From IMG/VR virus record IMGVR_UViG_3300032038_008756: a DNA stretch of 64,000 bases. One strand, given 5' to 3'. The position numbers and the translations under genes are program-made. Positions 11,117 through 56,263 of this stretch are shown here, piece by piece. Each line of letters opens with the position of its first letter. The stretch's first letter is position 1. Under the pieces are notes generated by a model. It was not told where the DNA came from. It made no database searches and saw nothing but the letters and a program-made list of their open reading frames with translations. The stretch comes from an uncultured virus (IMG/VR IMGVR_UViG_3300032038_008756) (lineage: Duplodnaviria > Heunggongvirae > Uroviricota > Caudoviricetes).

Positions 11117-11608
11117 ATGAAAATAGAATGTTATAAAGATAAAAACGTAAAATCAGTAACAATAATAGCCATCAATCTTATTCTAGAGACAAAGTACCCG
11201 GATAAAGAATACTATGGAATTAAAATAAAGAATGGGATAGCCAAAATTTTCTTATACTTTATAGTTAATCAATATAAGAGAATTCCAAGTGGTGAGATGG
11301 CATTATCTCGTATAAAGGATGCCATGATTCAATTTGATGGCTCAGAAAGTGTTAGTATGGTCTATGAAAAAGAATCTAAAAAAGAACTAGATATTGACGA
11401 TAATCAAGTATTAGAGATTCTGAGAGAAAAAATTAAAAACTATATTCCTTGGTCTTATGAGACTAATGTTAATGTTGTCAAAGATCTGTTAAATGGAACA
11501 ACATATGAACTTATTCCTTCAGAACTTAATACTATTACAAAAATATCAAGATTTATTAGACGAAGAAGATTATATAGAGAAAAAAGAGGGTGTGAGAAAT
11601 TTTTTTAA
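11117..11608 (+). CDS. hypothetical protein
   Basis: ORF with ATG directly after the promoter-like motif. Confidence 0.7.
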   Translation: MKIECYKDKNVKSVTIIAINLILETKYPDKEYYGIKIKNGIAKIFLYFIVNQYKRIPSGEMALSRIKDAMIQFDGSESVSMVYEKESKKELDIDDNQVLEILREKIKNYIPWSYETNVNVVKDLLNGTTYELIPSELNTITKISRFIRRRRLYREKRGCEKFF

Positions 11609-11700
11609 TAATACTTCTTCTAGAATTACCTTTTTATCTATTAATCACATTATGTTAATACCTTCGTAGTAAAACACTTTTATTTTCCTTATAATTGATT

Positions 11701-12723: not shown

Positions 12724-12738
12724 TACTCCCTTTCTTTT

Positions 12739-13749
12739 ATGACTATCTTAGAACTATTTAATCCAGATAAACCAATAGAAGAAATTAATAATTATCTTTT
12801 AAAAACTGGAGTTGATGATGTAGATAATCTCTTAACGGAACAGGATTTTCTAAAAAACTTAAAACTGATTAAGGATAATAATATCATAGACATTAATTTT
12901 TGTGGACATATTAATGGAATTCCAAAAACTAAGAGATTAATCTCAATTATAATTTATTATGAATTAATACCTGGTGGGACATTAATTAAGCTTGATATTC
13001 CTTTAGAAAATAAACGAGGGAATAAAATTCAAATCAATGGTCGTATTACAAATGATATATCTAAAATCTATAAATATCCATCAACTGTCTCATTAGGGTA
13101 TAATATACAGCCAGTTAGGCTTGAGGACATTGAATATCCTGCAGGTCTTAAGGAAAATCCCTGGGGCCTTAGCAGAAAGCAGGTTGAAGATGCAGCTAGA
13201 ACTTTTCGGAAAAGTATAGATCCTTATGTTCATGATTTGGAAGACCCTAAATTTCTATTAAATATTGCGGATTGGATAACGGAATTAAATCTCTTTAATA
13301 GAGATGATAAACATTCTTATCTTCATGGATATGGACAAACAGGAAGTTACGTAATCGAACCTCTAGTTAGAGCTGTCTTAGGACCAGAATATACTAAAGA
13401 AGACGCAGCACTTCTTAGCTTGAATTGTGTCAGATCACCTTTTGAATATCATCAATTTGGTAAATTTATTCCTAAGATACTTACTTTTGATCCAAAAATT
13501 AAAGATATTAATTTAAGGAGACATGAAATTTTTGTCTGGCAAAATAGAAAAGCAACCGATGAAGAAAAGAAAGAAGTAGCTACTAAGTGGATTAAAGCTG
13601 TTAAGAAAGCAATAGCTATAAATATAAAACGACATGATCTTAAAGAAGAACTTGAATTAATCCTGAAAAAAGAAAAACAAAAACTTCTGAAAGAAAGAGG
13701 ATATCAACCGGATTTCTTAAAAGATATACCATTAATTAAATTATTATGA
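12739..13749 (+). CDS. hypothetical protein between Rnl2 and RtcB
   Basis: 336 aa ORF, stop overlaps the rtcB start. Confidence 0.75.
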   Translation: MTILELFNPDKPIEEINNYLLKTGVDDVDNLLTEQDFLKNLKLIKDNNIIDINFCGHINGIPKTKRLISIIIYYELIPGGTLIKLDIPLENKRGNKIQINGRITNDISKIYKYPSTVSLGYNIQPVRLEDIEYPAGLKENPWGLSRKQVEDAARTFRKSIDPYVHDLEDPKFLLNIADWITELNLFNRDDKHSYLHGYGQTGSYVIEPLVRAVLGPEYTKEDAALLSLNCVRSPFEYHQFGKFIPKILTFDPKIKDINLRRHEIFVWQNRKATDEEKKEVATKWIKAVKKAIAINIKRHDLKEELELILKKEKQKLLKERGYQPDFLKDIPLIKLL

Positions 13750-15044
13750 TACAACTAGAAGGAAAGTATAGTAAAGATTGTAAAATTTGGACTGATAATA
13801 TAGACCAAAATGCCTTACAGCAAGTTTATGATCTAATTAATAGTGCAGAATTCACTAATGTTCCTGTTCGTGTTATGCCAGATGTCTGTGCAGGTGAGAC
13901 TACTATAGTGGGTCTAACATATCCCCTTATAAGTGGTTTTATAGCGCCATCTCACATAGGATCAGACGCAGGATGTTCTGTAAGTCTAGAATTCTTTAGT
14001 GGAACAGTGGAAAATGAAATGCTACCTCTTATTGAACATAGACTAAAACAAGAGATTCCTAGTGGCAAAGAGATATGCGCAAGTAGACAGTTTGACGTAA
14101 AAGAATTTCTAAAATTTTTAAGAACAGAATTACAAAGAATATATCAAAGTTCTAATGGTTTAATCATATTACCTGAGTTTAATCGAGAATCAGACCTAGA
14201 AGAATGGCTGGGGGATATTGGAGAAGACTTGGGGATATTCTATAAAAGTATAGGATCAATCGGATCCGGCAATCACTATATTGAATTAGACTTATGTGAG
14301 GATGGTAGATTAGCATTTACTGTACATACAGGTTCTAGAAGTCTTGGCTTAAAAGTCTTTAAAAAATGGCAAAGATTAGCAGATTCTACAAAAATATCTC
14401 AGTCTGGAGAAAAGAAAATCAGAAAAGAAAATAAAGGCAAACCACAAGAAGAGATTGAACGACTTATAATAGAATATAAAAAGACTCTTCACCCAGGATA
14501 TCTAACAGGAGAAAATCTAAGAGGATACTTAACAGATATTGCTATTTGTCAAATCTATGCTAAGTGGAATCATAAAGTAATTCTAGAAAAAGCAGCAAAA
14601 ATAATAGCCAAAGTTGGAGGTGGCAAAGTAGACGAAATAATAACTACAACACATAATTATATTGACTTTGATACTGTTGATGGAATTCCAATGGTTAGAA
14701 AAGGAAGTGTAAGAGCTAATGAAGGTGAAGTTTTCTTGCTGCCTTTTAATATGAGAGATGGTCTAGCAATATGTAAGGGAAAAGGAAATGTTGATTGGAA
14801 CTGCTCTTGCTCACATGGATCTGGTAGAAAATACTCTAGATCTCAAGCTAAGAAAAGAATAACACTAAAAGAATTTGAAAAAAGTATGAAAGGTATCTGC
14901 AGCACTAGCGTATGTCAAGGAACTATTGATGAAAGTCCTATGGCTTACAAAGATACAGAAGAAATCATTGAGTTAATTAAAGACACTGCAGATATTGAAT
15001 ATAGATTAAAACCACTGCTTAATATTAAAGGCGGAGGAGAATAA
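13746..15044 (+). CDS. rtcB: RtcB-family RNA ligase
   Basis: MPD, GSDAGC, GSGNHYIE, HTGSR, HNY, RKG, SHGSGR, DESPMAYKD. Confidence 0.92.
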   Translation: MIQLEGKYSKDCKIWTDNIDQNALQQVYDLINSAEFTNVPVRVMPDVCAGETTIVGLTYPLISGFIAPSHIGSDAGCSVSLEFFSGTVENEMLPLIEHRLKQEIPSGKEICASRQFDVKEFLKFLRTELQRIYQSSNGLIILPEFNRESDLEEWLGDIGEDLGIFYKSIGSIGSGNHYIELDLCEDGRLAFTVHTGSRSLGLKVFKKWQRLADSTKISQSGEKKIRKENKGKPQEEIERLIIEYKKTLHPGYLTGENLRGYLTDIAICQIYAKWNHKVILEKAAKIIAKVGGGKVDEIITTTHNYIDFDTVDGIPMVRKGSVRANEGEVFLLPFNMRDGLAICKGKGNVDWNCSCSHGSGRKYSRSQAKKRITLKEFEKSMKGICSTSVCQGTIDESPMAYKDTEEIIELIKDTADIEYRLKPLLNIKGGGE

Positions 15045-33284: not shown

Positions 33285-33742
33285 TAGAAGATATTTTTAG
33301 AGAATTTATTAACCTCGGTTATAAATCAGGAACACTACCTTCAAAAGATCGAGATATTCATGTAAAAGATCTTATTATTATGAGAATTGGAAATTCTTAC
33401 CTAAAAATACTCTACTTATTTAATGGTTCTTGTTTAAATATTCCTTGGTCTTGGATAGATCTTTTTTCAAGTTTAAATACCTGGGGAGGAGATAGAATTT
33501 TATTCCAATGTCAGGAAGAAAGAGAGAATCCTATTGCTAATTTTATAGAGGATTTTATTAATATTGCAGCATCAACAAGTTGTAGTAGAGTTAGCTCCGA
33601 ATTCTTAGATTGGATGAGTGATGCTTGCGAAATAGGAACAAGGGTTTTCAAAGATTGGTGTATAAGAGAAGGATTTTTTGAAGTTGAGAAAAAACTAGGA
33701 CCATTTGAATTTGTGTCTATTGATAAAAATTTAGAGATATGA
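33281..33742 (+). CDS. hypothetical protein
   Basis: coupled ORF. Confidence 0.6.
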   Translation: MIEDIFREFINLGYKSGTLPSKDRDIHVKDLIIMRIGNSYLKILYLFNGSCLNIPWSWIDLFSSLNTWGGDRILFQCQEERENPIANFIEDFINIAASTSCSRVSSEFLDWMSDACEIGTRVFKDWCIREGFFEVEKKLGPFEFVSIDKNLEI

Positions 33743-34212
33743 AGGAAATAAATATTTATACTGATGGCTCTCACCTTGACAAACAAAATAATGGACGTCT
33801 TGGGTGTGGAGGTATAATGGTATATGATGGAAAGATTATTAACAAGTTTAGTATTGAACTTAAACCAGATTGGTTAAAAAAGAATATAGGTACTGATCAA
33901 GTTAGTAATCCAACAGCTGAAATGATTGGTGTCTTAATGGCTCTTCAACAATTTGATATCCCTGCTGATGCTAAGGTTATAATCCGTGCTGATTATATAG
34001 GAGTTAAAGCCTGGATGTCAGGTACATGGAATACAAAAGAACCTTATGTAAAAAAATCTAAAGAACTTATTCAAAACGAAATCAAAACTAAAAACTTGAC
34101 TGGACGAATAAGATTCGAATGGGTAAAAGGGCATCAACCAAAATATAAAGCTGATGAACATGCTAAGTGGAATGATATAGTAGATCTACTTGCTAAAGGA
34201 CAATCAATATAA
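33739..34212 (+). CDS. rnhA: ribonuclease HI
   Basis: YTDGS, NPTAE, ADY, WVKGH, WNDIVDLLA. Confidence 0.88.
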   Translation: MKEINIYTDGSHLDKQNNGRLGCGGIMVYDGKIINKFSIELKPDWLKKNIGTDQVSNPTAEMIGVLMALQQFDIPADAKVIIRADYIGVKAWMSGTWNTKEPYVKKSKELIQNEIKTKNLTGRIRFEWVKGHQPKYKADEHAKWNDIVDLLAKGQSI

Positions 34213-34606: not shown

Positions 34607-34996
34607 TTGAGTAAAATGGAAGAATTAATTGAAACAACTGGTATCTCTAGTTTCAATGCTGGAGAAAAACTATCTTCATCAAAGTTAAATAAGCTTAATA
34701 CAACTATTAATGAGGTAGTAGGAGTTGTAAATAGAGACCTTCTAAAAGGAACTATTAACCTAAATAAAGAACTTGGTGATTCAAGCACAACTTGGACACT
34801 AAAACAGGTGATTAGGGAAATTCCTTTAAATAGAAGGGCAATTGGTCTAAGTGTTACTTTCTTAGAAGATAATAGTGGTACACCTGCTTGGATAACTTAT
34901 ACATTCCTTGGAGAAAGTCTAGAGGATATTGATTGGTATGATGAGTTAAAGTGGCAATGTGGGGAATTTGATATTATTGATGGAGGAGAGTGGTAA
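34607..34996 (+). CDS. hypothetical protein, possibly virion-associated
   Basis: FNAGEKLSSSKLNKLN and terminal IIDGGEW; start uncertain. Confidence 0.55.
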   Translation: MSKMEELIETTGISSFNAGEKLSSSKLNKLNTTINEVVGVVNRDLLKGTINLNKELGDSSTTWTLKQVIREIPLNRRAIGLSVTFLEDNSGTPAWITYTFLGESLEDIDWYDELKWQCGEFDIIDGGEW

Positions 34997-35592
34997 TGAC
35001 TTGGAATAACTCTGATGGATATGTAGAATATAAACAAGCTTTGAACTACCTAGAGAATAGTTTAGGTATTACTAAGTTTAATTTTGTTCTACGTCAAGAA
35101 TTAGCACCATACATAACTAGAATTCTACAATATATTAATAAAAACTTAATCGTTCTTGGAGACGATGTAAGCATGATTGACAAACTCCAAGAAGTATTTA
35201 ATACTTTTGACTATGGGGCAAACCTGATTATTGGGTTAGATACAGAAATATTAGCAGATGAAGTAGGTGTTCTAGAAGAAGGTGAAGGAGATATTGAATA
35301 TGAACAAGATAGATTTGTATTTTCTTGGTCAAATATTCTAACTTCTTTAGTAGAAAGATTAAAACTTCAATATGCAAGTCTTTTATATCAAGCCCCGGAA
35401 CAAGGATGTGGATGTAGTTGTGCAAATGGCGAAACATGGAAAGATTTTGAATCTTATTCCAGTGGTATTTGGCCCGAAGATGAAGAATATAGTACTTATG
35501 ATTTTGAAGGGGTAAAAACAAACCCTTACACATCAACAAGTGGATGCTCATGTGGAGGTCAACGAATGAAAAATTCATATAATAATAATTAA
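34990..35592 (+). CDS. hypothetical acidic protein with Cys-Gly clusters
   Basis: GCGCSC and GCSCGG; 3' 70 bp duplicated in the downstream array. Confidence 0.65.
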   Translation: MVMTWNNSDGYVEYKQALNYLENSLGITKFNFVLRQELAPYITRILQYINKNLIVLGDDVSMIDKLQEVFNTFDYGANLIIGLDTEILADEVGVLEEGEGDIEYEQDRFVFSWSNILTSLVERLKLQYASLLYQAPEQGCGCSCANGETWKDFESYSSGIWPEDEEYSTYDFEGVKTNPYTSTSGCSCGGQRMKNSYNNN

Positions 35593-35597
35593 AGAAA

Positions 35598-36941
35598 ATG
35601 AGTAAAATTAAAAAATTTGATTCAACTGACCAGTATCAAAAATATCGTAATACTGATGGTTGGGCATATCCGGCTGTTAATATAGTAAGTAATGGTATAG
35701 AAACACAAATGCACTATAATAATGAGCTGAGGATGAGATGGAGTACTACTGATGCTACTATAGTTCCTACTTTTTCAGGCGATGTTAGTTTAGCTGATTT
35801 TAAAACTTGGGTAGATAATGCTTCTTATCCATGTGAAATTAAGAAAGATGGTACTGACTTTGCTTATATTAAAAGATCATCTGGTTCTAATGTTGCAGAT
35901 TGGACTCTTAGAAGTGATGATAGTGCTAGCCATTATAATACTTCTGATAAAACTGATTATCTCCAAATGACTGAAATAGAGAATGTTAATGTAGGTCTTT
36001 TTGAGAATACAGTAGAACATTGGCAGGAGGTACGTTTTAATTTTGATAAAGGATGTCCAGAAGGTTTCCATAAGTGGTTTGCTCACCCATATTGGAATGC
36101 ATCTAGAGGAAGGTATACTAAGCTAATTGGACGATATAATAGTACACCTGCAGGAACAAATACATCAGATACTTCTGCTGGTATAAACTGTGCTTTTGGT
36201 CTATCTCTTGGTGGTACTAAGTACGATAATTATACTCTAGGTAACTGGACTGCAAATCTTCTCTTAGCTGCTACAAAAGCTACAAATGCTAATCTTTTAG
36301 AGGAAACTTATTGGGAACATGTAGTACTCTCTTACATATTTAGTGCATATTATGAAACATTTAATCATCAAAGTATATTCCGTGGACATGCCGGTGATTA
36401 CAATACTGCTGAAACTCCTAGCAATCCAACTGGTTCTGGTGCAGGTGCTGGATTAAATGGACATACTGATAGCTTATTAACACCTCATGGGACAAAAGTT
36501 TCTAATCCAAGTACTACTGATGGTGGATATAGATTTATGCATATTGAGAATGCAATTCACGGTCAACAGTTTCTTTGGGGAGCTGGATGGACTGGAAATG
36601 ATGGTAAGTATTATATGACTTATGATGATATTAAAGCTAATGCCTCTACTTCCCTTACTGAGTCTAATGCAGATGTAGTAGGAACTTATTCAACAAGATT
36701 AAGTAACTCCTATTTTGGGAATGCTGATCTTTGGGGTGTTCCAACAAATACGAGCGGTGGTAGTTCTTCTACTCGTTACTGTGATGCTGCTTGGTCCGGT
36801 ACGGGGTCTGACTATTTAGCTTATCTTGGTGGTCAATCGCAAACCATTACTGCTGCTGGTGGCTTTAATCGGCGCTTCCAGGAAGACGACGTAATTTTCA
36901 CCACCTGGTATCGTCGTGGTCGCTCTACTATGAATAGATGA
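35598..36941 (+). CDS. DGR-type target protein copy 1 (putative receptor-binding/tail protein, CLec-like C-terminus)
   Basis: YRFMHIENAIHG..W and LGG..GGF..W..RGR tail; hypervariable 3' end versus paralogs. Confidence 0.85.
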   Translation: MSKIKKFDSTDQYQKYRNTDGWAYPAVNIVSNGIETQMHYNNELRMRWSTTDATIVPTFSGDVSLADFKTWVDNASYPCEIKKDGTDFAYIKRSSGSNVADWTLRSDDSASHYNTSDKTDYLQMTEIENVNVGLFENTVEHWQEVRFNFDKGCPEGFHKWFAHPYWNASRGRYTKLIGRYNSTPAGTNTSDTSAGINCAFGLSLGGTKYDNYTLGNWTANLLLAATKATNANLLEETYWEHVVLSYIFSAYYETFNHQSIFRGHAGDYNTAETPSNPTGSGAGAGLNGHTDSLLTPHGTKVSNPSTTDGGYRFMHIENAIHGQQFLWGAGWTGNDGKYYMTYDDIKANASTSLTESNADVVGTYSTRLSNSYFGNADLWGVPTNTSGGSSSTRYCDAAWSGTGSDYLAYLGGQSQTITAAGGFNRRFQEDDVIFTTWYRRGRSTMNR

Positions 36942-37110
36942 TCCTGGACTTGAAGAGGACAGAAGTAAATTAATTGTACTTCAGAAACTCTCTAAATTCT
37001 TATATATGTAATGTAAAGAGAAAATAATTAAGAACAATCCTACCGTACACTGATTATAATTCTTTTTACATTCTTTTTTATCAACGAAAAAGGTTCATCT
37101 CTACGGCTTT

Positions 37111-37227
37111 TCCTTATTTTATCATCGCAAGATCGATAATAGTTTTTAATACCAATGGTGGTAACTCGAACAATGGGTTTGCTCATTGGTGGATTTGCTC
37201 AATTCTTCCTCAACACCAATACTGATT
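37111..37227 (+). other. decayed DGR template repeat TR1
   Basis: noncoding ggtggtaactcgaacaatggg...tttgct...ttcttcctcaac...caatactgat, homologous to the VRs, with a 41-bp insertion and an internal deletion versus TR2. Confidence 0.7.
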
Positions 37228-37419
37228 AAATTATAATTTATTTTAAACTTAGTAAAAAAAATAAAAAAGTAAAAGGATATGAATCTTGCAGCAAAATCTA
37301 GCAAATAAACTTAGGAAGCAATAAAAAAAATAGTAGAGTAAGTAAGCCCTTACACATCAACAAGTGGATGCTCATGTGGGGGATCAACGAATGAAAAATT
37401 CATACAATAACTAAAGAAA

Positions 37420-38760
37420 ATGAGTAAAATTAAAAAATTTGATTCAACTGACCAGTATCAAAAATATCGCGATACTGACGGTTGGGCATATCCAGCTATT
37501 AATGTAATAAGTAATGGTATAGAAACACAAACACATTATAATAATGAGCTGAGGATGAGATGGAGTACTACTGATGCTACTATAGTTCCTACTTTTTCAG
37601 GCGATATTAGTTTAGCTGATTTTAAAACTTGGGTAGATAATGCTTCTTACCCGTGTGAAATTAAAAAAGATGGTACTGATTTTGCTTATATTAAAAGATC
37701 AACTGGATCTAATGTTGCGGATTGGACTCTTAGAAGTGATGATAGTAACAGTCATTATAATACTTCTGATAAAACTAATTATCTCCAAATGACTGAAATA
37801 GAGAATATTAATGTAGGTCTTTTTGAGAATACAGCAGAGCATTGGCAAGAAGTACGCTTTAATTTTGATAAAGGTTGTCCAGAAGGTTTTCATAAGTGGT
37901 TTGCTCACCCATATTGGAATGAAGAACGCGGGTGTTATACTAAGCTTATTGGACGATATAATAGTACACCTGCAGGAACAAATACATCAGATACTGCTGC
38001 TGGTATAAATTGTGCTTTTGGTCTATCTCAGGGTGGTACTAAGAGCAATAATTATACTCTAGGTTTCTGGTCTGCAAATACACTCTTAGCTGCTACAAAA
38101 GCTACGAATGAGAATCTTTTAGAGGAAACTTATTGGGAACATGTAGTACTCTCTTACATATTTAGTGCATATTATGAAACATTTAATCATCAGAGTATAT
38201 TCTATGGACATGCCACTGATTACAATACTGCTGAAACTCCTAGCAATCCAACTGGTTCTGGTGCAGGAGCTGGATTAAATGGACATACTGATAGCTTATT
38301 AACACCTCATGGGACAAAAGTTTCTAATCCAAGTTCTACTGATGGTGGATATAGGTTTATGCACATTGAGAATGCTATTCATGGTCAGCAGTGGATTTGG
38401 GGAGCTGGATGGGTTGGAAATAGTGGCAAGTATTATATGACTTATGATGATATTAAAGCTAATGAATCTGCTACCCTCACTGAGTCTAATGCAGATGTAG
38501 TGGGAACTTATCCAACAACATTAAGTGGCCAGTATTTTGGAAATGCTGATCTTTGGTGTGTTCCGACTAATAAGAGTGGAGGTAGTTCTTCTACTCGTTA
38601 TTGTGATGATGGTTGGTCCGCTGCGGGGACTGGTCGTGTAGCTTACCTTGGTGGTTCCGCGAACAGCGGGGCGGGCTGTGGCGGCTTTGCTCGGAGCTTC
38701 TACTACGACGCTACTATGGACCTCTGGGGTCATCGTGGTCGCCCTACTATGAATAGATGA
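37420..38760 (+). CDS. DGR-type target protein copy 2
   Basis: paralog of copy 1; VR about 38647-38748 rich in NNC codons. Confidence 0.85.
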   Translation: MSKIKKFDSTDQYQKYRDTDGWAYPAINVISNGIETQTHYNNELRMRWSTTDATIVPTFSGDISLADFKTWVDNASYPCEIKKDGTDFAYIKRSTGSNVADWTLRSDDSNSHYNTSDKTNYLQMTEIENINVGLFENTAEHWQEVRFNFDKGCPEGFHKWFAHPYWNEERGCYTKLIGRYNSTPAGTNTSDTAAGINCAFGLSQGGTKSNNYTLGFWSANTLLAATKATNENLLEETYWEHVVLSYIFSAYYETFNHQSIFYGHATDYNTAETPSNPTGSGAGAGLNGHTDSLLTPHGTKVSNPSSTDGGYRFMHIENAIHGQQWIWGAGWVGNSGKYYMTYDDIKANESATLTESNADVVGTYPTTLSGQYFGNADLWCVPTNKSGGSSSTRYCDDGWSAAGTGRVAYLGGSANSGAGCGGFARSFYYDATMDLWGHRGRPTMNR

Positions 38761-38908
38761 TCCTAGACTTGAAGAGGACAGAAGTGAATTAATTGTACTA
38801 CGGAAACTCCCTAAATTCTTATATATGTAATGTAAAGAGAAAATAATTAAGAACAATCCTACCGTACCCTGATTATAATTCTCTTTACATTCTTTTTTAT
38901 CAACGAAA

Positions 38909-40252
38909 ATGAATAATAATATTAGAAAATTTGATTCAACTACTCAGTATCAAAAATATCGTGATACTGATGGTTGGGCATATCCAGCTGTTAATGTAAT
39001 AAGTAATGGTATAGAAATACAAACACATTATAATAACGAGCTAGGAATGAGATGGAGTACTACTGATACTAAGATAGTTCCTACTTTTTTAGGTGAAGTT
39101 AGCTTATCTGATTTTAAAACTTGGGTAGATAATGCTTCTTATCCATGTGAAATTAAGAAAGATGGTACTGACTTTGCTTATATTAAAAGATCAACTGGTT
39201 CTAATATTGCAGATTGGACTCTTAGAAGTGATGATAGTAACAGTCATTATAATACCTCTGATAAAACTGATTATCTTCAAATGACTGAAATAGAGAATGT
39301 TAATGTAGGTCTTTTTGAGAATACAGTAGAACATTGGCAGGAAGTACGTTTTAATTTTGATAAAGGTTGTCCAGAAGGTTTTCATAAGTGGTTTGCTCAT
39401 CCATATTGGAACGAAGAACGTGGATGTTATACAAAACTTATTGGTAGATATAATAGTACCCCTGCTGGAACAAAGACATCAAATACTGCTGCAGGTATAA
39501 ATTGTGCCTTTGGTCTATCTCTAGGTGGTACTAAGTACAATAATTATACCCTAGGTAACTGGTCTGCAAATACCCTCTTAGCAGCTACAAAAGCTACAAA
39601 TGCTAATCTTTTAGAGGAAACTTATTGGGAACATGTAGTACTCTCTTACATATTTAGTGCATATTATGAAACATTTAATCATCAGAGTATATTCTATGGA
39701 CATGCCACTGATTACAATATTGCTGAAAATCCTAACAGTCCAACCGGTGCAGGCGCAGGTGCTGGATTAAATGGACATACTGATAGCTTATTAACACCCC
39801 ATGGGACAACAGTTTCTAATCCAAGTACTACTGATGGTGGATATAGATTTATGCATATTGAAAACGCAATTCACGGTCAGCAGTGGATTTGGGGAGCTGG
39901 ATGGGTTGGAAATAATGGTAAGTATTATATGACTTATGATGATATTAAAGCTAATGCATCTGCTACCCTCACTAAGTCTAATGCAGATGTAATAGGAACT
40001 TATTCAACGACATTAAATGGCCAGTATTTTGGAACTGCTGATCTTTGGTGTGTTCCTACTAATGCGAGTGGTGGTAGTTCTTCTACTCGTTATTGTGACG
40101 CTGCTTGGTCCAATAAGGGGACTGGTCGCGTAGCTTGGCTGGGTGAGGACGCGGGCGGTGGTGGTTGTAATGGTGGTTTTGCTCGGGTCTTCCTCTACGC
40201 TGCTGGTCCCGCCTACTGGGTTTGGCGTGGGCGCTCTACTATGAATAGATGA
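38909..40252 (+). CDS. DGR-type target protein copy 3
   Basis: paralog; VR about 40139-40240 colinear with TR2. Confidence 0.85.
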   Translation: MNNNIRKFDSTTQYQKYRDTDGWAYPAVNVISNGIEIQTHYNNELGMRWSTTDTKIVPTFLGEVSLSDFKTWVDNASYPCEIKKDGTDFAYIKRSTGSNIADWTLRSDDSNSHYNTSDKTDYLQMTEIENVNVGLFENTVEHWQEVRFNFDKGCPEGFHKWFAHPYWNEERGCYTKLIGRYNSTPAGTKTSNTAAGINCAFGLSLGGTKYNNYTLGNWSANTLLAATKATNANLLEETYWEHVVLSYIFSAYYETFNHQSIFYGHATDYNIAENPNSPTGAGAGAGLNGHTDSLLTPHGTTVSNPSTTDGGYRFMHIENAIHGQQWIWGAGWVGNNGKYYMTYDDIKANASATLTKSNADVIGTYSTTLNGQYFGTADLWCVPTNASGGSSSTRYCDAAWSNKGTGRVAWLGEDAGGGGCNGGFARVFLYAAGPAYWVWRGRSTMNR

Positions 40253-40420
40253 TCCTAGACTTGAAGAGGACAGAAGTGAATTAATTGTACTACGGAAACT
40301 CCCTAAATTCTTATATATGTAATGTAAAGAGAAAATAATTAAGAACAATCCTACCGTACCCTGATTATAATTCTCTTTACATTCTTTTTTATCAACGAAA
40401 AAGGTTCATCTCTACGGCTT

Positions 40421-40525
40421 TTCCTTGGTGATAACTTGAACAACAGGTCTGCTGCTGGTGGTTTTGCTAGACTCTTCTTCCTCAACGCTGGTCCCTCCTA
40501 CTGGAATAGGCATGGGCGCAATACT
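40421..40525 (+). other. DGR template repeat TR2 (partly adenine-depleted)
   Basis: ungapped codon-for-codon alignment to VRs 2-4, with AAC/AAT at variable positions. Confidence 0.82.
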
Positions 40526-40707
40526 GATTAAATTATAATTTATTTTAAACTTAGTGAAAGGATATGAATCTTGCAGCAAAATCTAGCAAATAAACTTAGG
40601 AAGCAATAAAAAAAATAGTAGAGTAAGTAAGCCCTTACACATCAACAAGTGGATGCTCATGTGGGGGATCAACGAATGAAAAATTCATACAATAATAATT
40701 AAAGAGA

Positions 40708-42045
40708 ATGAGTAATTATATTAAAAAATTTGATTCAACTACTCAGTATCAAAAATATCGTGATACTGACGGTTGGGAATATCCTGCTATTAATATAGTA
40801 AGTAATGGCATAGAAACACAAACACATTATAATAATGAGCTGAGAATGAGGTGGAGTACTACTGATTCTACTATAGTTCCTACTTTTTCGGGTGAAGTTA
40901 GTTTATCTGATTTTAAAACCTGGGTAGATAATGCCTCTTATCCATGTGAAATTAAAAAAGATGGTACTGATTTTGCTTATATTAAAAGATCAACTGGCTC
41001 TAATGTTGCAGATTGGACTCTTAGAGATGATGATAGTAACAGTCATTATAATACTTCTGATAAAACTGATTATCTCCAAATGACTGAAATAGAGAATATT
41101 AATGTAGGTCTTTTTGAGAATACAGCAGAAGGTTGGCAAGAAGTACGTTTTAATTTTGATAAAGGATGCCCAGAGGGTTTTCATAAGTGGTTTGCTCATC
41201 CATATTGGAACGAAGAGCGTGGATGTTATACAAAACTTATTGGACGATATAATAGTACACCCGCAGGAACAAGTACATCAGATACTGCTGCTGGTATAAA
41301 CTGTGCTTTTGGTCTATCTCTGGGTGGTACTAAGTACGATAATTATACTCTAGGTTTCTGGTCTGCAGATACACTCTTTTACGCTACACAAGCTACCAAT
41401 CTTTTAGAGGAAACTTATTGGGAACATGTAGTACTTTCTTACATATTTAGTGCATATTATGGAACATTTGATCATCAGAGTATATTCCGTGGACATGCTA
41501 CTGATTTCAATACTGCTGAGACTCCTAGCAATCCAACTGGTTCTGGTGCAGGAGCTGGATTAAATGGACATACTGATAGTTTATTAACACCTCACGGGAC
41601 AAAAGTTTCTAAGCCTAGTACTACTAATGGTGGATATAGGTTTATGCATATTGAGAATGCAATTCATGGTCAGCAGTGGATTTGGGGAGCTGGATGGACT
41701 GGAAATGATGGTAAGTATTATATGACCTATGATGATATTACAGCTAATGCCTCTACTACCCTTACTGAGTCCGATGCAGATGTAGTGGGAACTTATCCAA
41801 AAACATCAAGTGGTAACTATTTTGGGAATGCTGATCTCTGGTGTGTTCCAACAAATACAAGCGGTGGTAGTTCCTCTACCCGTTATTGTGACAGTGTTCT
41901 TAGCAGGACAGGGGATGGTCATGTAGCTTATCTTGGTGGTGACGCGCTTAGCGCGAATGGCTGTGGCGGCTTTTCTCGGGACTTCCGCAATGACGCTGCT
42001 CACTCCTACCGGTATCGGCGTGGTCGCCCTACTATGAATAGATGA
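40708..42045 (+). CDS. DGR-type target protein copy 4
   Basis: paralog; VR about 41932-42033. Confidence 0.85.
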   Translation: MSNYIKKFDSTTQYQKYRDTDGWEYPAINIVSNGIETQTHYNNELRMRWSTTDSTIVPTFSGEVSLSDFKTWVDNASYPCEIKKDGTDFAYIKRSTGSNVADWTLRDDDSNSHYNTSDKTDYLQMTEIENINVGLFENTAEGWQEVRFNFDKGCPEGFHKWFAHPYWNEERGCYTKLIGRYNSTPAGTSTSDTAAGINCAFGLSLGGTKYDNYTLGFWSADTLFYATQATNLLEETYWEHVVLSYIFSAYYGTFDHQSIFRGHATDFNTAETPSNPTGSGAGAGLNGHTDSLLTPHGTKVSKPSTTNGGYRFMHIENAIHGQQWIWGAGWTGNDGKYYMTYDDITANASTTLTESDADVVGTYPKTSSGNYFGNADLWCVPTNTSGGSSSTRYCDSVLSRTGDGHVAYLGGDALSANGCGGFSRDFRNDAAHSYRYRRGRPTMNR

Positions 42046-42081
42046 TCCTAGACTTGAAGAGGACAGAAATATATAGGTACG

Positions 42082-42363
42082 ATGAAAACAGCTGGATCAT
42101 CTTTATATAAACCTATAAGGATACATCATTTTGAATTTATCCCTTCTAAGAAATATGAAGGAAAGGAATGTTTGATAGCTCAAACTTCTGTAATAAAGAA
42201 GGATGAAAGAATAGAAAATGTATTACTAGCTACAGAATCATATAAAATAGTGGATACGATAAAAGAATCAATGAAGAATAATGTTAATCTTCCATATGAT
42301 ACTAAGATTATTAGGGGCAGGAAGGGAAATTTTAAACTAGCATCCCTCAGTAATCTAAACTAG
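42082..42363 (+). CDS. probably 5'-truncated small protein resembling those found downstream of RT in Bacteroidetes phage DGRs
   Basis: IRIHHFEFIPSKKY..CL..Q..TESYKIVD..LPYDTKI pattern (recalled resemblance); open frame begins at the repeat breakpoint 42068. Confidence 0.5.
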   Translation: MKTAGSSLYKPIRIHHFEFIPSKKYEGKECLIAQTSVIKKDERIENVLLATESYKIVDTIKESMKNNVNLPYDTKIIRGRKGNFKLASLSNLN

Positions 42364-42439
42364 AATCATTATCAGATCCTACAAAACAGGGAGAGACACC
42401 ATTCGACAACCTTAATAATGAAACTAAAATTAAATAAAT

Positions 42440-43069
42440 ATGGAAAAAGACAATATTTTAGAAAACAGAACTTCACCTGATTATATAATTGAGGATCCTG
42501 CATTTTATGCGGCTGGTATATTAGATATAACTGAATTTCTATTTGTTGAAATGATTGATCTTTTAAAATTAGAAGACCGATGCTTTGGAATAGTAAAGTC
42601 ATATATTCATAGCATACGCGGAGCTTATTTAAAAGTTAATCAACAAGTAGCAGAGGAAGATATTGAAATATATGACAGACTCCTCTTTTTATATAAGCCT
42701 CTTATCATTCGAGAGTTTAAACGATTGAAGAATAAACATCTTAGCCCAGCTGATGCATGTATTACAATTCTTCATCGTTTATTAGAGATTATATCGGACA
42801 TTCCTAATTTTGAATTCAAAGCTGAACATAAGACTATAAAAAAAGTTATTGGAAAGCTTTGGGATAATATTAGAAATAATGCAAAAAAGGACCCTCTTTA
42901 TCACTTCTCAGAACTAATTAGAGATAGTATGAAGGATGGTATTGTTGGTAAGTATCCATTAACTCAAATTAATCTTAAAGATGTAGATAGGGTTAATCCA
43001 GTTTTGAAAAATCCTGGAGAGAGAATGAAAGAAGAAAATAACAAAGTAATGGAAATTAAACTAGTATGA
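42440..43069 (+). CDS. hypothetical protein
   Basis: 209 aa ORF. Confidence 0.75.
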   Translation: MEKDNILENRTSPDYIIEDPAFYAAGILDITEFLFVEMIDLLKLEDRCFGIVKSYIHSIRGAYLKVNQQVAEEDIEIYDRLLFLYKPLIIREFKRLKNKHLSPADACITILHRLLEIISDIPNFEFKAEHKTIKKVIGKLWDNIRNNAKKDPLYHFSELIRDSMKDGIVGKYPLTQINLKDVDRVNPVLKNPGERMKEENNKVMEIKLV

Positions 43070-47585: not shown

Positions 47586-48263
47586 TTATTCTAGTTCTTT
47601 CCACTTTTCTTCTGGATAAGTATTATGTAACTTATCTAACCACCACTTCGTCTTTATTTTTACCTTTGGCATTCTCTGACCCTTCATTAATGTTGAACGT
47701 CTTGCTACAACTCCTTCTTTTACCTCAGGATATTTACACTCAAGTTTGGTCCAATCATTTTCTTGAATTTCTTTTATAAAATCTTGATTTAAAGGACCAC
47801 GATAAATTAAAGTTGGAGTCGGAATTCTAGGGTCTTTACAAAAGAGATCATAAAATGGTTGTGGCTCAATATATCCTTTCTTCTGCATAAAAAGATCAAT
47901 AAGAGCCAAAGTCATCTCATCTCCCTCTTGATGAAATCCAGCAAAAGAATTTGGACCATACCATTCAAAGAAAAAATCAATCTCCTTTACTCCATTAAAT
48001 AATCGATGCTTACCTCTATTTTGAGCAATAATTTCTTTCAAAGGATCTTCTAGATAAGTCTTAAAATATTGAACAGCAGAGCCAAAAACTTCACTAGTTT
48101 CATCTACTAAGCACTTTCTGCTATGAAAACCAGAGAATACTTTTTGATTAGGGTTATACTTTACTCCAAAATTCTGTCCATCTAATTTATTAAAAGCCCA
48201 GACCTGTTCCCCTAAAAGAGTACCATTATCCTGGATTCTTATTATACTATCATACTTTCTCAT
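47586..48263 (-). CDS. ATP-dependent RNA ligase-like nucleotidyltransferase
   Basis: NKLDGQN, FEWYG, LIDL, EGVVAR, VKIKT. Confidence 0.8.
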   Translation of the reverse strand: MRKYDSIIRIQDNGTLLGEQVWAFNKLDGQNFGVKYNPNQKVFSGFHSRKCLVDETSEVFGSAVQYFKTYLEDPLKEIIAQNRGKHRLFNGVKEIDFFFEWYGPNSFAGFHQEGDEMTLALIDLFMQKKGYIEPQPFYDLFCKDPRIPTPTLIYRGPLNQDFIKEIQENDWTKLECKYPEVKEGVVARRSTLMKGQRMPKVKIKTKWWLDKLHNTYPEEKWKELE

Positions 48264-50957: not shown

Positions 50958-52241
50958 ATGAATAATTTAACAAAAATAGAAAAGAAGTATAGAGAATTTA
51001 ATAAAGAAATACATATAGTTCTTGGTTGGGCTTTTGGTGATGAAGGCAAGGGCGTTGTTACTCAGTGGTTAGTAGAGCGAGCTATAAAAGAAGGAAAAAA
51101 GCCTTGTGTAGTAAGATTCTCTGGTGGTCCTCAAGCTGCACATACAATTCGTCATGGTGGTTTTGAGCATATCTGTTCATCTTTTGGATCAGGCGTTCTT
51201 TTAGGAGTTCCAACATTTATTCAAGGGAGTAATTGTTTTATTGATCCAGCCTCTATGAAGTTGGAGCATGATACTTTATTATCAAAGGGATTAAAGGTTG
51301 ATTATCCATGGATTGGACACGGCGTTAAGATTATAACTCCTATGGATATTTTATCAGGGAGAAATAATCCTAAAGTTAGGTCTGATGGTACTTGTGGAAA
51401 AGGATTATATTCAACTTGGAAGAGATATCAAGACTCTCATGATCTATTTGAATCGCGCGGTCTTTATTCGTTTACTCCTGACTCATGGAAGAGAGTAGAA
51501 AAATACTACAATGAAGAGTGGGAGGATGAAGATGTTAAAGAGTTATGGTTCAAATCTTTGGAGGAAGTTAGGGGAGTTCAAGATACTGTTTTAAGTCTTA
51601 CAAGAGGCCCGGGTAATCATGGATGTATATCAAGTCTTATTTTTCTCGATGAGTTTGATGTAATTATTCTTGAAGGTTCGCAAGGTCTTCTTTTAGACAT
51701 GGAATATGGGTTTTATCCAAATGTCACCCCAAGTAAGACTGGTTTAAATGGTGTTGCTAGTGATATTTTTGGAAATCCCTACTTACTTAAAGGGTCTAAA
51801 GTATGGTTAGTATCAAGAACTTACCTCACAAGGCATGGAAATGGATATGAGCCTTTCCTAAGTTCTCATTTAGATTTAAAGGGAAAGTATGAAACAAATG
51901 TACAGAATGAATTTCAGGGAGATTTTAAGACAGGTCTCTTAGAAAAAGATCTTTTAGAGCGTGCGTTTGATAGACATAGATTAGATTATTATAGCAATGT
52001 ATATAATATAACTTTTAATGTGGTTTTAACTCACATGGATATAATAAAGGATAAATTTTATTATATTCAGCGGAGGATTGGAAATAATGCAGAGGTTAGG
52101 GTCTCATCGCGAGATAATGTAGTACAGTCAATCTTAGGAGACACTATATTTGCTTCATTCATTAATGAGATATATACAAATAGTAGTCCTGAATCAAATT
52201 TACAGAAATATGAAGATAGCAGCTTTCTTAGGAAGTTTTGA
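50958..52241 (+). CDS. purA: adenylosuccinate synthetase-like protein
   Basis: FGDEGKG, GGPQAAHT, EGSQGLLLD, YPNVTPS, TYLTRHGNG. Confidence 0.82.
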   Translation: MNNLTKIEKKYREFNKEIHIVLGWAFGDEGKGVVTQWLVERAIKEGKKPCVVRFSGGPQAAHTIRHGGFEHICSSFGSGVLLGVPTFIQGSNCFIDPASMKLEHDTLLSKGLKVDYPWIGHGVKIITPMDILSGRNNPKVRSDGTCGKGLYSTWKRYQDSHDLFESRGLYSFTPDSWKRVEKYYNEEWEDEDVKELWFKSLEEVRGVQDTVLSLTRGPGNHGCISSLIFLDEFDVIILEGSQGLLLDMEYGFYPNVTPSKTGLNGVASDIFGNPYLLKGSKVWLVSRTYLTRHGNGYEPFLSSHLDLKGKYETNVQNEFQGDFKTGLLEKDLLERAFDRHRLDYYSNVYNITFNVVLTHMDIIKDKFYYIQRRIGNNAEVRVSSRDNVVQSILGDTIFASFINEIYTNSSPESNLQKYEDSSFLRKF

Positions 52242-53505: not shown

Positions 53506-53829
53506 TGAGCAGAAAATAGAGTTTTTGAAACAAGTAAAAAAGAAGTACTCAGTTTCAAGAGCTCTTTTATTCCCACAGATCATAATAAAGATGATAAGTC
53601 TTTTACTTAGAAAGAAATTCGTCTCTTTAGAAAATCTTATTTAAATGATAATCAAACTGGAGAAAAGAAAGAACTTCTATCTAGGCAGGAGGTCGATAAA
53701 AGTGAAGATATTGTAACAATAACTAGAATGGGATTGGTAACAGCAGCAATGGATTTATTAGAAATTGCCAAGAATACATCAATGCCAAATGAACTTGAAC
53801 ATTTATATAAAATTATTGATATTGTATGA
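53506..53829 (+). pseudogene. possible disrupted gene upstream of gltX
   Basis: near-continuous frame with one TAG (53608-53610), no in-frame start at its 5' end, stop overlapping the gltX ATG. Confidence 0.35.
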
Positions 53830-55325
53830 AAAAAGTAAGAGTTAGATTTGCACCAAGTCCTACAGGCCCTCTTCATATAGGAGGAGTTAGGACAGCATTG
53901 TATAATTATCTTTTAGCAAAACAAAATGGTGGAGATTTTATTCTAAGAATTGAGGATACTGATTCTACGCGTTTTGTTCCTGGAGCTGAAGAATATATAG
54001 TTGATTCTCTTAGGTGGTTAGGGATTATGCCTACGGAGGGTATAGGTTCAAATGACCTAAAAAGTCATGGTCCTTATCGCCAAAGTGAAAGACGTAGTAT
54101 CTACTATGAATATATAGATAAGCTAGTAAAAATGGGCAAAGCTTATATTGCCTTTGATACTCCAGAGGAATTAGAGAGGACTAGAGCTAAAATTCATAAT
54201 TTCCAGTATAATTCTAAAACTAGACTGGGTATGAAAAATAGCTTAAGTATGACAGAAGAGGAGGTTAAGGCTGAGATAGATTCAGGAAAACAGTATACCA
54301 TTAGGTTTAAAGTAGAACCAGGTCAGACTATTGAATTTGAGGATTTAATTCGAGGTTCTATTACAGTAAATTCAGATAACATAGATGATAAAATTCTATG
54401 GAAAAGTTCAGATGAATTACCAACTTATCATTTTGCTAATGTAGTAGATGATCACCTAATGGAGATTAGTCATGTTATTCGTGGAGAAGAGTGGATTCCG
54501 AGTACTCCTTTACATTGTCTTTTGTATGAGGCTTTTGGTTGGGATAGACCTGAATTTGCGCATCTACCTCTTATTCTAAAGCCGGCAGGAATGGGTAAAC
54601 TGGCAAAAAGAGATGGGGATTCTCTCGGTTTTCCTGTATATCCTCTACAATGGAAAGACCCTAAAACTGGAGAAATTAGTTCTGGTTATCGAGAGATGGG
54701 CTGGTTTCCGGAAGCTGTAGTAAATTATCTTGCATTTCTAGGTTGGAATCCTGGCACAGAGCAAGAAATCTTTAGTATGGATGAATTAATAGAAGCTTTC
54801 AGTCTTAAACATGTTCAGAAATCAGGAGCAAGGTTTGATAATCAAAAGGCAATTTGGTTTAACCATGAATATATGCTAAGAAAAAGACCAGAAGACTTAC
54901 TTACAACAGTTCAAGCGTTTTTTACTGGTTGGGGAGCTGATACAGAAAAAGAAAAAACCTTAAAGATTATAGAGTTAATGAAGGATAGAGTTAATTTTAT
55001 CCACGAACTTTGGCCTTTATGTGAGTTCTTCTTCTTTGAACCATCAGATTACGATGAAAAATCAGTAAAGAAATTTTGGAAAGAGAATAGTAAAGATATT
55101 CTTCCGATAGTACCTTTTGAAAAGGGGAAGGAGTATACTTGTGGCTGGATTGAAGGTGTAAGCTGGATTGAGAATAATAAAAAATTTATGGGAGAAGTAA
55201 TGAATGCTCTCAGAGTTGCAGTTGTTGGAAAAGCAATAGGACCTGAGATGTTTGCAATCATAGACGTTCTTGGAATAGATGAGGTTAGGAAAAGAATTAA
55301 TAAAGCAATAGAGAAATTAGGATGA
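53826..55325 (+). CDS. gltX: glutamate--tRNA ligase
   Basis: RFAPSPTGPLHIGG, RIEDTD, PYRQSER, HVIRGEEW, KLAKR. Confidence 0.96.
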   Translation: MKKVRVRFAPSPTGPLHIGGVRTALYNYLLAKQNGGDFILRIEDTDSTRFVPGAEEYIVDSLRWLGIMPTEGIGSNDLKSHGPYRQSERRSIYYEYIDKLVKMGKAYIAFDTPEELERTRAKIHNFQYNSKTRLGMKNSLSMTEEEVKAEIDSGKQYTIRFKVEPGQTIEFEDLIRGSITVNSDNIDDKILWKSSDELPTYHFANVVDDHLMEISHVIRGEEWIPSTPLHCLLYEAFGWDRPEFAHLPLILKPAGMGKLAKRDGDSLGFPVYPLQWKDPKTGEISSGYREMGWFPEAVVNYLAFLGWNPGTEQEIFSMDELIEAFSLKHVQKSGARFDNQKAIWFNHEYMLRKRPEDLLTTVQAFFTGWGADTEKEKTLKIIELMKDRVNFIHELWPLCEFFFFEPSDYDEKSVKKFWKENSKDILPIVPFEKGKEYTCGWIEGVSWIENNKKFMGEVMNALRVAVVGKAIGPEMFAIIDVLGIDEVRKRINKAIEKLG

Positions 55326-56263
55326 AAATAATATTTTTTGGAAATACGGAGTATAGTATTGCAATTTTAGAAGAAATTCTTAAATCAAGGCATGAAGTTG
55401 TAGGTGTTGTTAGTACTCCTAATAAAGAGGTTAAGGTTAGAAGAAAAACAACTACCATCATTCAACCTATGACAACTTATGCAAAGGAGCATAATATTCC
55501 TTTGTACCAGCCAGAGAATTTAAAAGAGACAGATTGGACTGAAGGACTGGAGTTTGATTTATTTGTTGTGGTAGCTTTTAAAATTCTCCCTAAAGAGTTA
55601 TATTCTTTACCTAAGAAGGGCTGTGTTAATATTCACCCAAGCATTTTACCAGAGTATAGAGGATCAACACCAATAGAACATGCCATCATGAATGGAGATA
55701 CTAAAAGTGGTGTAACTTCTTTCTATATAACAGATGGTATAGATAATGGAGATATAATTGAATGTATTGAAACAACATTAGAACCAGATATTTATATTGA
55801 TCAAGCTTATTCTAAAATGATGTCAGTAGGTAAAGAATGCATCAATTTAACGCTAAAAGCTATAGAATCTGGTAAACAAGGTAAAAAACAGTCTCAAGGT
55901 CAATATAGGAGGGCTCCAAAAATAAAAGGAAAAATATGGCTTAATCCTAATGATACTGTAGATGATGCTTACAATAAAGTTAGGGCACTTAGTCCATACT
56001 ATGGCGGCCTTAATGTACATACTACAGGAGACTTAGACTTTAGTATCCTTCGAGCTGAATGTCAAGAAGTAATCGTATTTACTAAACCTGGAGAAATTTT
56101 AATGTATGATCAAGATAAATTTTGTATTACAGTACAAGATAGAAAAAAGGTTCTTGTAATAAATGAACTTAAACCTATTGGCAAGCGAGCGATGTCTTCA
56201 AAAGAGTTTGTAAATGGACATAGAAATATTACCTCCCTTAGAGTCATTAGTAGAGAAGTTTAA
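55322..56263 (+). CDS. fmt: methionyl-tRNA formyltransferase
   Basis: IFFGN, VVAFKILP, NIHPSILPEYRG, DNGDII, APKI, VRALSPY. Confidence 0.9.
   Translation: MKIIFFGNTEYSIAILEEILKSRHEVVGVVSTPNKEVKVRRKTTTIIQPMTTYAKEHNIPLYQPENLKETDWTEGLEFDLFVVVAFKILPKELYSLPKKGCVNIHPSILPEYRGSTPIEHAIMNGDTKSGVTSFYITDGIDNGDIIECIETTLEPDIYIDQAYSKMMSVGKECINLTLKAIESGKQGKKQSQGQYRRAPKIKGKIWLNPNDTVDDAYNKVRALSPYYGGLNVHTTGDLDFSILRAECQEVIVFTKPGEILMYDQDKFCITVQDRKKVLVINELKPIGKRAMSSKEFVNGHRNITSLRVISREV

Follow-up and report, generated by a model that had tools for sequence, protein, structure and literature searches.

How does a phage come to carry four tandem copies of one gene with strongly different ends, and is anything still rewriting those ends? 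This question is raised by a 64-kb stretch of DNA (the window) from the uncultured virus IMGVR_UViG_3300032038_008756 (Caudoviricetes). The window is part of a 77.7-kb contig, and the genome is probably much larger. The arrangement recalls a diversity-generating retroelement (DGR), in which a reverse transcriptase (RT) is needed to transfer a template repeat (TR), mutated at its adenines, into the variable region (VR) at the end of a target gene. Our best explanation, to which we give a probability of about 0.8, is that the locus is a decaying DGR without an RT, with its target gene multiplied into four copies, each of them now a fixed variant.

The four genes lie head to tail on the plus strand and encode proteins of 445-447 aa (Table 1). 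Protein identity to gene 1 is 82-85%, gene 3 compared with the other three copies gives 82-87% (tblastn), and the nucleotide difference between copies is 8-10%. In 30-codon segments over codons 1-390 the nucleotide identity is 80-100%, while over the last ~58 codons it is 62-75%. The tips have a GC content of 49-65%, with VR1 the lowest at 49%, where the gene bodies have 35-37% and the whole window has 32%, and NNC codons account for 11-15 of 39 codons in the tips and 26-32 of ~402 in the bodies. Within the tips dN (nonsynonymous divergence) is 0.35-0.67. For the gene bodies, dS (synonymous divergence) is 0.19-0.31 and dN/dS is 0.23-0.35 in all six pairs; all four genes are intact, and by these ratios the bodies are under purifying selection. 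A sequence-only reading of this DNA had described four near-identical genes of this length whose last ~40 codons differ strongly, tips rich in GC and NNC codons in AT-rich DNA, and two noncoding homologs of the tip between the genes. These observations hold: the open reading frames (ORFs) are present, the GC and codon counts agree, the tip sequences that it quoted are hypervariable, and the two homologs are TR1, after gene 1, and TR2, after gene 3. Beyond TR1 and TR2, a tblastn search with gene 3 revealed no further tip copy in the 64 kb.

A large protein collection contains 91 homologs of these proteins, many of them on contigs of 150-430 kb. Their tips follow the pattern GG.S..G...G.FAR.F...AS...W.RGR.TMNR, in which the variable positions hold residues reachable by mutagenesis of AAC/AAT codons. 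Pfam and PHROGs gave no family for the four genes or their small neighbours, megablast and tblastn against a phage collection gave no match, and no relatives were confirmed in viral contig and genome contig collections. An AlphaFold (AF2) model of gene 3 built from 69 sequences had a pLDDT of 93.4 and a pTM of 0.94. Its best matches in the PDB were TaqVP (5vf4; E 3.8e-6, probability 1.00) and Mtd (1yu0-1yu4; E 1.3e-3, probability 0.69-0.82), at a sequence identity of 9-12% and whole-chain TM-scores of only 0.24-0.46. BFVD, a library of viral structures, gave 38 matches at E <= 0.001, and the top ones (E 2e-20, TM 0.55-0.72) carry automatic labels of tail collar fibre or tail fibre, several being from crAss-like phages. 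The genes that neighbour the array in the window are not a tail module. The predicted structure thus has a C-type lectin (CLec) fold whose C-terminal strands hold the variable residues, and orthologs of the four genes are paired with a TR and an RT, as described below; the earlier proposal that these are DGR targets with a CLec C-terminus is borne out by both. We infer that the four proteins would be made, and their resemblance in fold suggests that each would give a tail-fibre-like protein a fixed specificity of its own for binding a ligand or receptor.

What a working version of this locus looks like can be seen in its relatives. A scan of metagenomes gave 29 loci, 21 of which were examined for a TR; in 15 of the 21 a TR lies 130-230 nt past the stop codon. 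Fourteen of the 15 were scored, L013 being omitted since it duplicates L012 in both VR tail and TR match. In the 14 loci, 213 of 223 TR/VR mismatches (95.5%) are at TR adenines, and nine loci have no other mismatch. The ORF straight after the TR is an RT: Pfam RVT_1 was found in five of seven tested, and that of L021 matches phrog_1423 at 1e-48. We built an RT-family profile from the RTs of seven relatives and ran it against all 29 loci to establish the state of the RT. It is full length in 10 loci, and adjacent to the TR in all 10; it is cut by the contig end in two (L010 and L013), lies in three pieces in one (L018) and is a 73-aa stump in one (L017). No RT signal was obtained from 15 loci, among which six contigs end before the slot, while TR and RT are both lacking in L011 and L022-L029. 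In 12 loci an ORF of ~130 aa that overlaps the RT end follows the RT slot, and a 209-aa ORF comes next. For this post-RT ORF, both the ~130-aa form of the relatives and the 93-aa form of the window, no Pfam or PHROG match was found and no match to Avd in Pfam; a word-based homolog search gave only two matches. The post-RT ORF (window 42082-42363; L021:2221-2610), which is the one small ORF conserved in the cassettes of the relatives, may be an undescribed DGR accessory gene, and it survives here without an RT, having lost ~15 codons from its 5' end.

From the TRs of five relatives we derived a set of 20 invariant-A and 49 invariant scaffold sites, on which the four tips of the window were scored. 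Pairs of VRs differ at 10-16 of the 20 invariant-A sites but at only 5-13 of the 49 scaffold sites (Fisher p 0.025 to 3e-7). Scaffold violations are absent (0 of 49 sites) from the VRs of three active relatives. In contrast, VR1 violates 12, VR2 5, VR3 4 and VR4 8; the drift away from adenine positions that the sequence-only reading had noticed, mainly in copy 1, is thus present in all four and strongest in VR1. Variable positions also contain CAA, CAG, GAA, GAG and ATG, codons that are out of reach of AAC/AAT mutagenesis. The 3' ends of the VRs are conserved and GC-rich (CGTGGT/GCGC.CTACT), and TR2 has CATGGGCGCAATACT at this place; as far as sequence alone can tell, these are candidates for IMH and IMH* (initiation of mutagenic homing sites). 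We read the VRs as bearing the imprint of past adenine mutagenesis that was followed by drift.

The RT gene of the relatives is absent. Pfam searches of 45 of the 87 called ORFs of at least 60 aa detected no RT in the window. Synteny with the relatives on both sides of the array (Table 1) places the RT slot between 42045 and 42064, where only a stub of ~23 nt of the spacer S1, which separates VR from TR, is present. After gene 4 nothing remains of the TR, the post-TR spacer or the RT; the remainder of S1 is missing as well, and so are ~15 codons of the ORF that comes next. Since synteny on both sides locates the slot, the RT is missing from it and not merely undetected, and the cassette has no DGR-clade RT gene within the 64 kb.

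The RT has nevertheless left a trace. When the seven-RT profile was searched against all 2326 six-frame pieces of the window, the sole match was on the minus strand within 37043-37198, covering 19 residues of the profile (positions 215-233) at E 0.0022. This fragment coincides with 42 extra bases (37114-37155) that are inserted between S1 and TR1 in unit 1, and these read GIKNYYRSCDDKI where the L021 RT has KDYYRFCDDKI. The site is also matched by six of the seven RT queries of the relatives (tblastn), and at the DNA level 37106-37153 is 79% identical to 1631-1678 of the L021 RT gene over 48 nt (E 3.5e-7). The earlier statement that no RT motif is visible in the 64 kb is therefore right as to the gene but not strictly true as to the motif, since the 42-nt fragment on the minus strand carries the YxDD box.

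Contigs from public sequencing runs extend this picture. Four runs (X1-X4), with a share of at most 0.10 of the sampled words, yielded contigs only; contigs 90-99% alike came from two runs labelled bovine gut metagenome (X3 and X4) and from the two other runs. Judging from these contigs for its habitat, the host phage is probably of a large, AT-rich, ruminant-gut type. One contig of X3 lacks exactly the 42 nt. In X1 and X3 the same 42 nt occur in the opposite orientation on a contig with the post-RT ORF, and a contig of X3 extends the remnant past 37155 in frame, reading AIDWHMTIE where L021 has AIDWEMICE, just upstream of YxDD (by eye). These contigs, at least 90% alike, indicate that in close relatives the normal slot still contains the N-terminal half of the RT, if not more of it. 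The joint of 37114 with 42063, on opposite strands in X1 and X3, may mean that the RT of those relatives is cut right after YxDD, or that an intact RT lies there, only 42 nt of which correspond to anything in the window.

The templates are no longer what the relatives' templates are. TR1, with the lesions given in Table 1, is 79.5% identical to the L021 TR over 44 nt. Between TR2 and VR1-4, 13-16 of 20 A sites and 18-26 of 82 non-A sites differ, compared with 0 of 73-78 non-A sites in the cognate TR/VR pairs of three relatives under the same scoring. An enrichment of mismatches at TR2 adenines, as the sequence-only reading led one to expect, is still present (Fisher p 5e-3 to 2e-6), but only 34-47% of the mismatches are at A, so that TR2 and VR1-4 do not show differences almost only at TR adenines. 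By non-A mismatches TR2 is about as distant from its own VR1, VR2 and VR4 (24-26) as from the VRs of L021, L004 and L006 (26-29). It keeps 11 of the 20 invariant adenines and breaks 9 of the 49 invariant scaffold sites. AAC or AAT is retained at six codons, and CTC, TTC, CTC, CCC and TAC stand where the TRs of all five relatives have AAC; the nine lost adenines are in those five codons, with only adenines changed and the third-position C kept. TR1 also has TTC TTC CTC. Consequently, the loss of adenines predates the duplication of the TR, and both TRs come from one that was already corrupted. A mutagenized copy of VR type may have overwritten part of the template, by VR-to-TR gene conversion or by mis-homing of the cDNA. 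The post-TR motif TTGCGGCAA.GG.TCGCAAT, which four relatives share unchanged, has become TTGCAGCAAAATCTAGCAAAT in each of the window's two copies, with changes on both sides of a putative stem.

We also considered that the TR-like copies are pseudo-tips that have drifted towards AT. This was ruled out by the mismatches, which affect 13-16 of 20 TR adenines versus 8-12 of 31 TR thymines, and by position, as the copies sit exactly at the TR site of the relatives.

One of the tips is found again, unchanged, elsewhere. The C-terminal ~220 aa of gene 4, including VR4, are identical (by eye) in P0005, a protein of 453 aa encoded on another contig, of 65 kb; the N-terminal ~150 residues of P0005 are divergent, and its overall identity is 80%. 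Likewise, P0097 and P0098 come from two contigs and have different N-termini and one common VR that violates the scaffold. In contrast, ten sister proteins of the same 90% cluster (P0001, P0096 and P0099-P0106) have ten different VRs with a near-constant scaffold (by eye; P0104 has one E and one extra residue). Ten different VRs on near-identical bodies is the pattern of an active DGR in the sister proteins. The sequence-only reading had left a choice between a static substitute for the DGR and tips served by an RT in trans; the corrupted TRs and the unchanged VR4 in another genome favour the static alternative.

Several points weigh against a dead DGR, and most of them would suit a DGR that is still active because an RT outside the window, from a second DGR or relocated, uses TR2 RNA in trans on at least one VR. 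TR2 is still full length and in frame and has 20 adenines. Over the 42 nt at the 3' end VR3 and TR2 mismatch at 8 of the 9 adenines of TR2 but at no more than 2 of the 33 remaining sites (manual count). The two also share derived non-A states (GGT CCC.CC TAC), so that a late event in VR3 may have used TR2, as it now stands, for its template. TR1 and TR2 are 74% identical, while their flanks are 94% (spacer) and 99% (post-TR) identical. Decay of the TRs near the neutral, synonymous rate (dS of genes 1 and 3, 0.23) fits the TRs, but the flanks then need constraint or gene conversion; selection, gene conversion, or a role as promoter, terminator or leader of the next gene could have conserved them. 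Only 64 kb of the 77.7-kb contig were seen and relatives lie on contigs of up to 374 kb, so an RT may lie elsewhere in the genome, and non-adjacent targets and action in trans are documented for DGRs in the part of PMC5758913 that was available. The array and its copy number come from metagenome contig assembly, and the expression and function of the four proteins are predictions. Nevertheless, we consider a DGR operating in trans improbable. Every VR departs from TR2 at many non-A sites, the VRs of unrelated lineages are about as near to TR2 as VR1, VR2 and VR4 of the window are, 9 of the 20 invariant adenines of TR2 are gone, the post-TR motif is altered, VR4 is unchanged in a second genome, and in every relative with a full-length RT that RT adjoins the TR. 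We therefore keep to a DGR that has lost its RT, and infer that no RT elsewhere in the genome serves the locus.

The anatomy of the repeats tells how the four copies may have arisen. A unit consists of an upstream segment of ~75 nt, the gene, S1, the TR and ~100 nt of post-TR sequence, with a TR in units 1 and 3 only. S1 is ~170 nt long and 94% identical after genes 1 and 3, the upstream and post-TR segments at the junctions are 95-99% identical between units, and the 143 nt after the TRs (37268-37410 versus 40553-40695) are 99% identical. We take this layout to be the footprint of a tandem duplication of the upstream 75 nt with gene, S1, TR and post-TR segment, in line with the earlier proposal that units of target and TR had been amplified; the repeat unit runs from ~75 nt 5' of the start codon to ~100 nt past the TR. 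A long hairpin and a T run, seen in the fold of copy 3, lie in S1 ~80 nt past the stop codon, and the S1 fold overall has a z-score of -0.42, indistinguishable from shuffled sequences. Rfam gave no match on 35000-43000 at E <= 1, and in a scan of 35300-42600 for sigma-70 promoters and terminators the sites were fewer than, or no more than, those in shuffled sequences.

The same array could have been formed by recombination with co-infecting relatives that had an active DGR, before or after the RT was lost, so that already diversified alleles were captured. P0005 is a mosaic, with the C-terminus of gene 4 on a divergent N-terminus; the N-terminus of gene 3, MNNNIRKF, resembles MSNNIRKF of the sister lineage; identity along the genes is patchy, genes 2 and 3 for example being 100% identical over codons 241-270 and genes 1 and 2 99% over codons 271-300; and contigs of run X2 join gene 3-like to gene 2-like sequence. 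However, the junctions are as regular as those of a tandem duplication, with the same closely similar upstream and post-TR segments, and the adenine losses shared by TR1 and TR2 point to one corrupted ancestor TR. We regard capture as somewhat unlikely. It would alter the history and not the present state of the locus, and it is compatible with an RT-less array of fixed variants.

It may also be asked whether the four copies are real, or strain variants of a single-copy gene that the assembly strung together. The source is a metagenome, the contigs from public runs break inside the array and none spans two copies, and the same doubt is voiced on an array of eight targets in the available portion of PMC5758913. 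However, the four junctions are all different (S1 with 42 nt and TR1, a shortened S1, S1 with TR2, and an S1 stub), which is not expected from collapsed strains, and one contig of run X1, 235 nt long, reaches from S1 across the RT remnant into TR1. Copies as divergent as these can be told apart by a short-read assembler, each of the four is intact, with the dN/dS ratios given above, and L011 independently has two tandem copies. An artefact of this kind is highly improbable in our view.

On the preferred explanation, the ancestral order would have been an upstream ORF, one CLec target with a C-terminal VR, a spacer of ~170 nt, the TR, a spacer of ~180 nt, the RT, an ORF of ~130 aa and an ORF of 209 aa. 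The unit of gene, spacer, TR and post-TR segment would have been amplified in tandem to four gene copies, two of which retain a TR. The RT would have been lost through a deletion from the spacer after gene 4 into the post-RT ORF, with a 42-nt inverted scrap of it left beside TR1. At present the VRs would no longer be rewritten; substitutions of the ordinary kind would build up in VRs and TRs, with purifying selection still acting on the gene bodies.

Table 1. Features of the target gene array and its surroundings, with matches to loci of relatives (positions are those of the window)
Feature	Position	Strand	Remarks
Match to L002 RNase H	33739-34206		synteny match, 62% identity
Match to L002 116-aa ORF	34616-34993		synteny match, E 2e-24
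Upstream ORF, 200 aa	34990..35592	+	last ~75 nt recur as noncoding DNA 5' of genes 2 and 4 and form the left boundary of the duplicated unit
Match to L002 233-aa ORF	34996-35586		synteny match, 49% identity, E 9e-66 (tblastn)
Target gene 1, 447 aa	35598..36941	+	VR1 36825-36929, most drifted tip, one extra codon
Spacer S1 copy 1 (VR to TR)	36942..37113	+	94% identical to copy 3; 13+7-bp hairpin, then T run
RT gene remnant, 42 nt, inverted	37114..37155	-	encodes GIKNYYRSCDDKI including YxDD box
TR1, decayed	about 37156..37223	+	1-nt insertion, missing codon, ~33-nt deletion
Post-TR segment and repeated ~75-nt upstream segment, copy 1	37224..37419	+	homolog of the relatives' TR-to-RT spacer; conserved motif altered
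Target gene 2, 446 aa	37420..38760	+	VR2 38647-38748
Spacer S1 copy 2, shortened to ~148 nt	38761..38908	+	fused straight to start codon of gene 3; without TR
Target gene 3, 447 aa	38909..40252	+	VR3 40139-40240; gene used for structure model
Spacer S1 copy 3	40253..40423	+	from alignment of downstream regions
TR2, full length, in frame, corrupted	40424..40525	+	tblastn of gene 3, E 3e-5
Post-TR segment and repeated upstream segment, copy 2	40526..40707	+	from alignment of junctions and relatives
Target gene 4, 445 aa	40708..42045	+	VR4 41932-42033
S1 stub, ~23 nt	42046..42068	+	left edge of deletion after gene 4
Match to post-RT ORF of L002, L006 and L021	42064-42351		E 2e-11 to 3e-14
ORF of 93 aa, homolog of the relatives' ~130-aa post-RT ORF	42082..42363	+	tblastn E 2e-11 to 3e-14 with ORFs of three relatives (L002, L006, L021)
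Downstream ORF, 209 aa	42440..43069	+	41% identical to L002 209-aa ORF, E 1e-44, match 42440-43063

Elsewhere in the window, 50958-52241 encodes an adenylosuccinate synthetase resembling PurA, with a match of partial coverage to Pfam Adenylsucc_synt at E 2e-29; phages whose DNA has its adenine replaced use a PurZ type of this enzyme. The regions 11695-15044, 47586-48263 and 53826-56263 hold an Rnl2-type RNA ligase, RtcB, a second RNA ligase, a glutamyl/glutaminyl-tRNA synthetase and a methionyl-tRNA formyltransferase. Such RNA-repair and translation genes are a set typical of very large phages.

Loss of the RT is not confined to the window. L017 and L019, which has an intact RT, are 98-99% identical on either side of a gap of ~1.1 kb that removes most of the RT from L017, where TR and VR differ 10 out of 10 times at A. 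L018 is 99% identical to L019 and has a 1-nt alignment gap that leaves its RT in three pieces; here 16 out of 16 differences are at A. Since TR and VR still differ at adenines only in L017 (1900-2800) and L018 (11560-12900), both RT losses must be very recent. L011 (10001-16784) has two tandem target copies, the second of which is the N-terminal part of a 1797-aa ORF, with tips rich in E, K and Q, and neither a TR nor an RT was found within the 17 kb examined. L022-L029, from contigs of ~340 kb, have one target copy without TR and RT. In a separate observation, the TR of L002 (11471-11776) is split by ~160 nt of AT-rich DNA (11542-11701), while its VR is continuous; on both TR halves the mismatches are at A only (5/5 and 12/12). 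Either this insertion happened very recently, or it is excised or bypassed by the time cDNA is made.

We put forward only tentatively a broader idea, namely that the large gut phages of this family have two alternative and interconvertible solutions, on-demand hypermutation and a gene array that is hard-wired. The DGR would have been lost repeatedly, by a frameshift in L018 and by deletion in L017 and in the window, a loss that corruption of the TR may have triggered or sealed; breadth would be kept by amplification of the target, with several tips that were diversified beforehand expressed side by side, and L011 would represent a later stage.

Surveys of DGRs that start from the RT discard loci without one or never see them. 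The locus described here shows what a DGR leaves behind, intact targets under selection that bear an adenine-site signature next to decaying TRs. Its relatives, which are found intact, frameshifted, deleted and amplified, form a natural series for asking how, and how often, DGRs are lost, and the series also bears on whether a template can kill its DGR by corrupting itself and whether amplification can replace hypermutation as a source of host-range breadth. A rule for recognizing former DGR targets in the absence of an RT follows the same signature: one looks for paralogs or orthologs whose differences fall mainly on the NNC/NNT codons within a CLec tip.

In Bordetella phage BPP-1 the gene order is mtd-avd-TR-brt. 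The present locus resembles the canonical phage DGRs of BPP-1 and of the Bacteroides 'hankyphage' in its C-terminal CLec target, in a TR downstream with AAC/AAT at the variable positions, and in VR variation at TR adenines, and its relatives have the RT directly after the TR. Unlike both, the window has no RT gene, its TRs are corrupted, and four targets are interleaved with two TRs; unlike BPP-1, the small ORF follows the RT slot and does not precede the TR, and it has no match to Avd in Pfam. TaqVP (5vf4) and Mtd are the best fold matches in the PDB and likewise have their variable residues in the last ~40 residues, but they share only 9-12% sequence identity with the present proteins, which have no Pfam match.

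Inactive DGRs and multi-target cassettes are both already known. According to the passages of PMC5758913 at hand, multi-target cassettes make up ~15% of DGRs, with one Stenotrophomonas sp. carrying eight tandem targets, and the highest non-A count that these passages report for a single target gene is 11, compared with 18-26 for the VRs of the window against TR2. The window shares with such cassettes its tandem paralogous targets with different VRs. In those cassettes, however, one TR and one RT serve all targets and the mismatches are A-to-N, whereas in the window each unit had a TR copy of its own when amplified and the RT is gone. DGRs have been classed as active or inactive by enrichment of variants (extract of PMC8144416), loss of a DGR in culture has been suggested (extract of PMC3575424), and the question of defective DGR remnants has been raised (extract of PMC6199706). 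A full-text search of the literature, which did not cover supplementary tables, returned no description of an RT-less amplified target array that bears TRs, or of a template depleted of adenines; what comes nearest is stated in PMC5758913. The window is also like the DGRs that surveys discard: function is lost, and the poor match of TR to VR and the missing RT are the very grounds for discarding. Such DGRs have been set aside without description. Here, in contrast, the decay can be traced from the intact L019 through the frameshift of L018 and the deletion of L017 to the window, with its deletion, TR decay and amplification, and, unlike in the discarded cases, the targets are retained under purifying selection.

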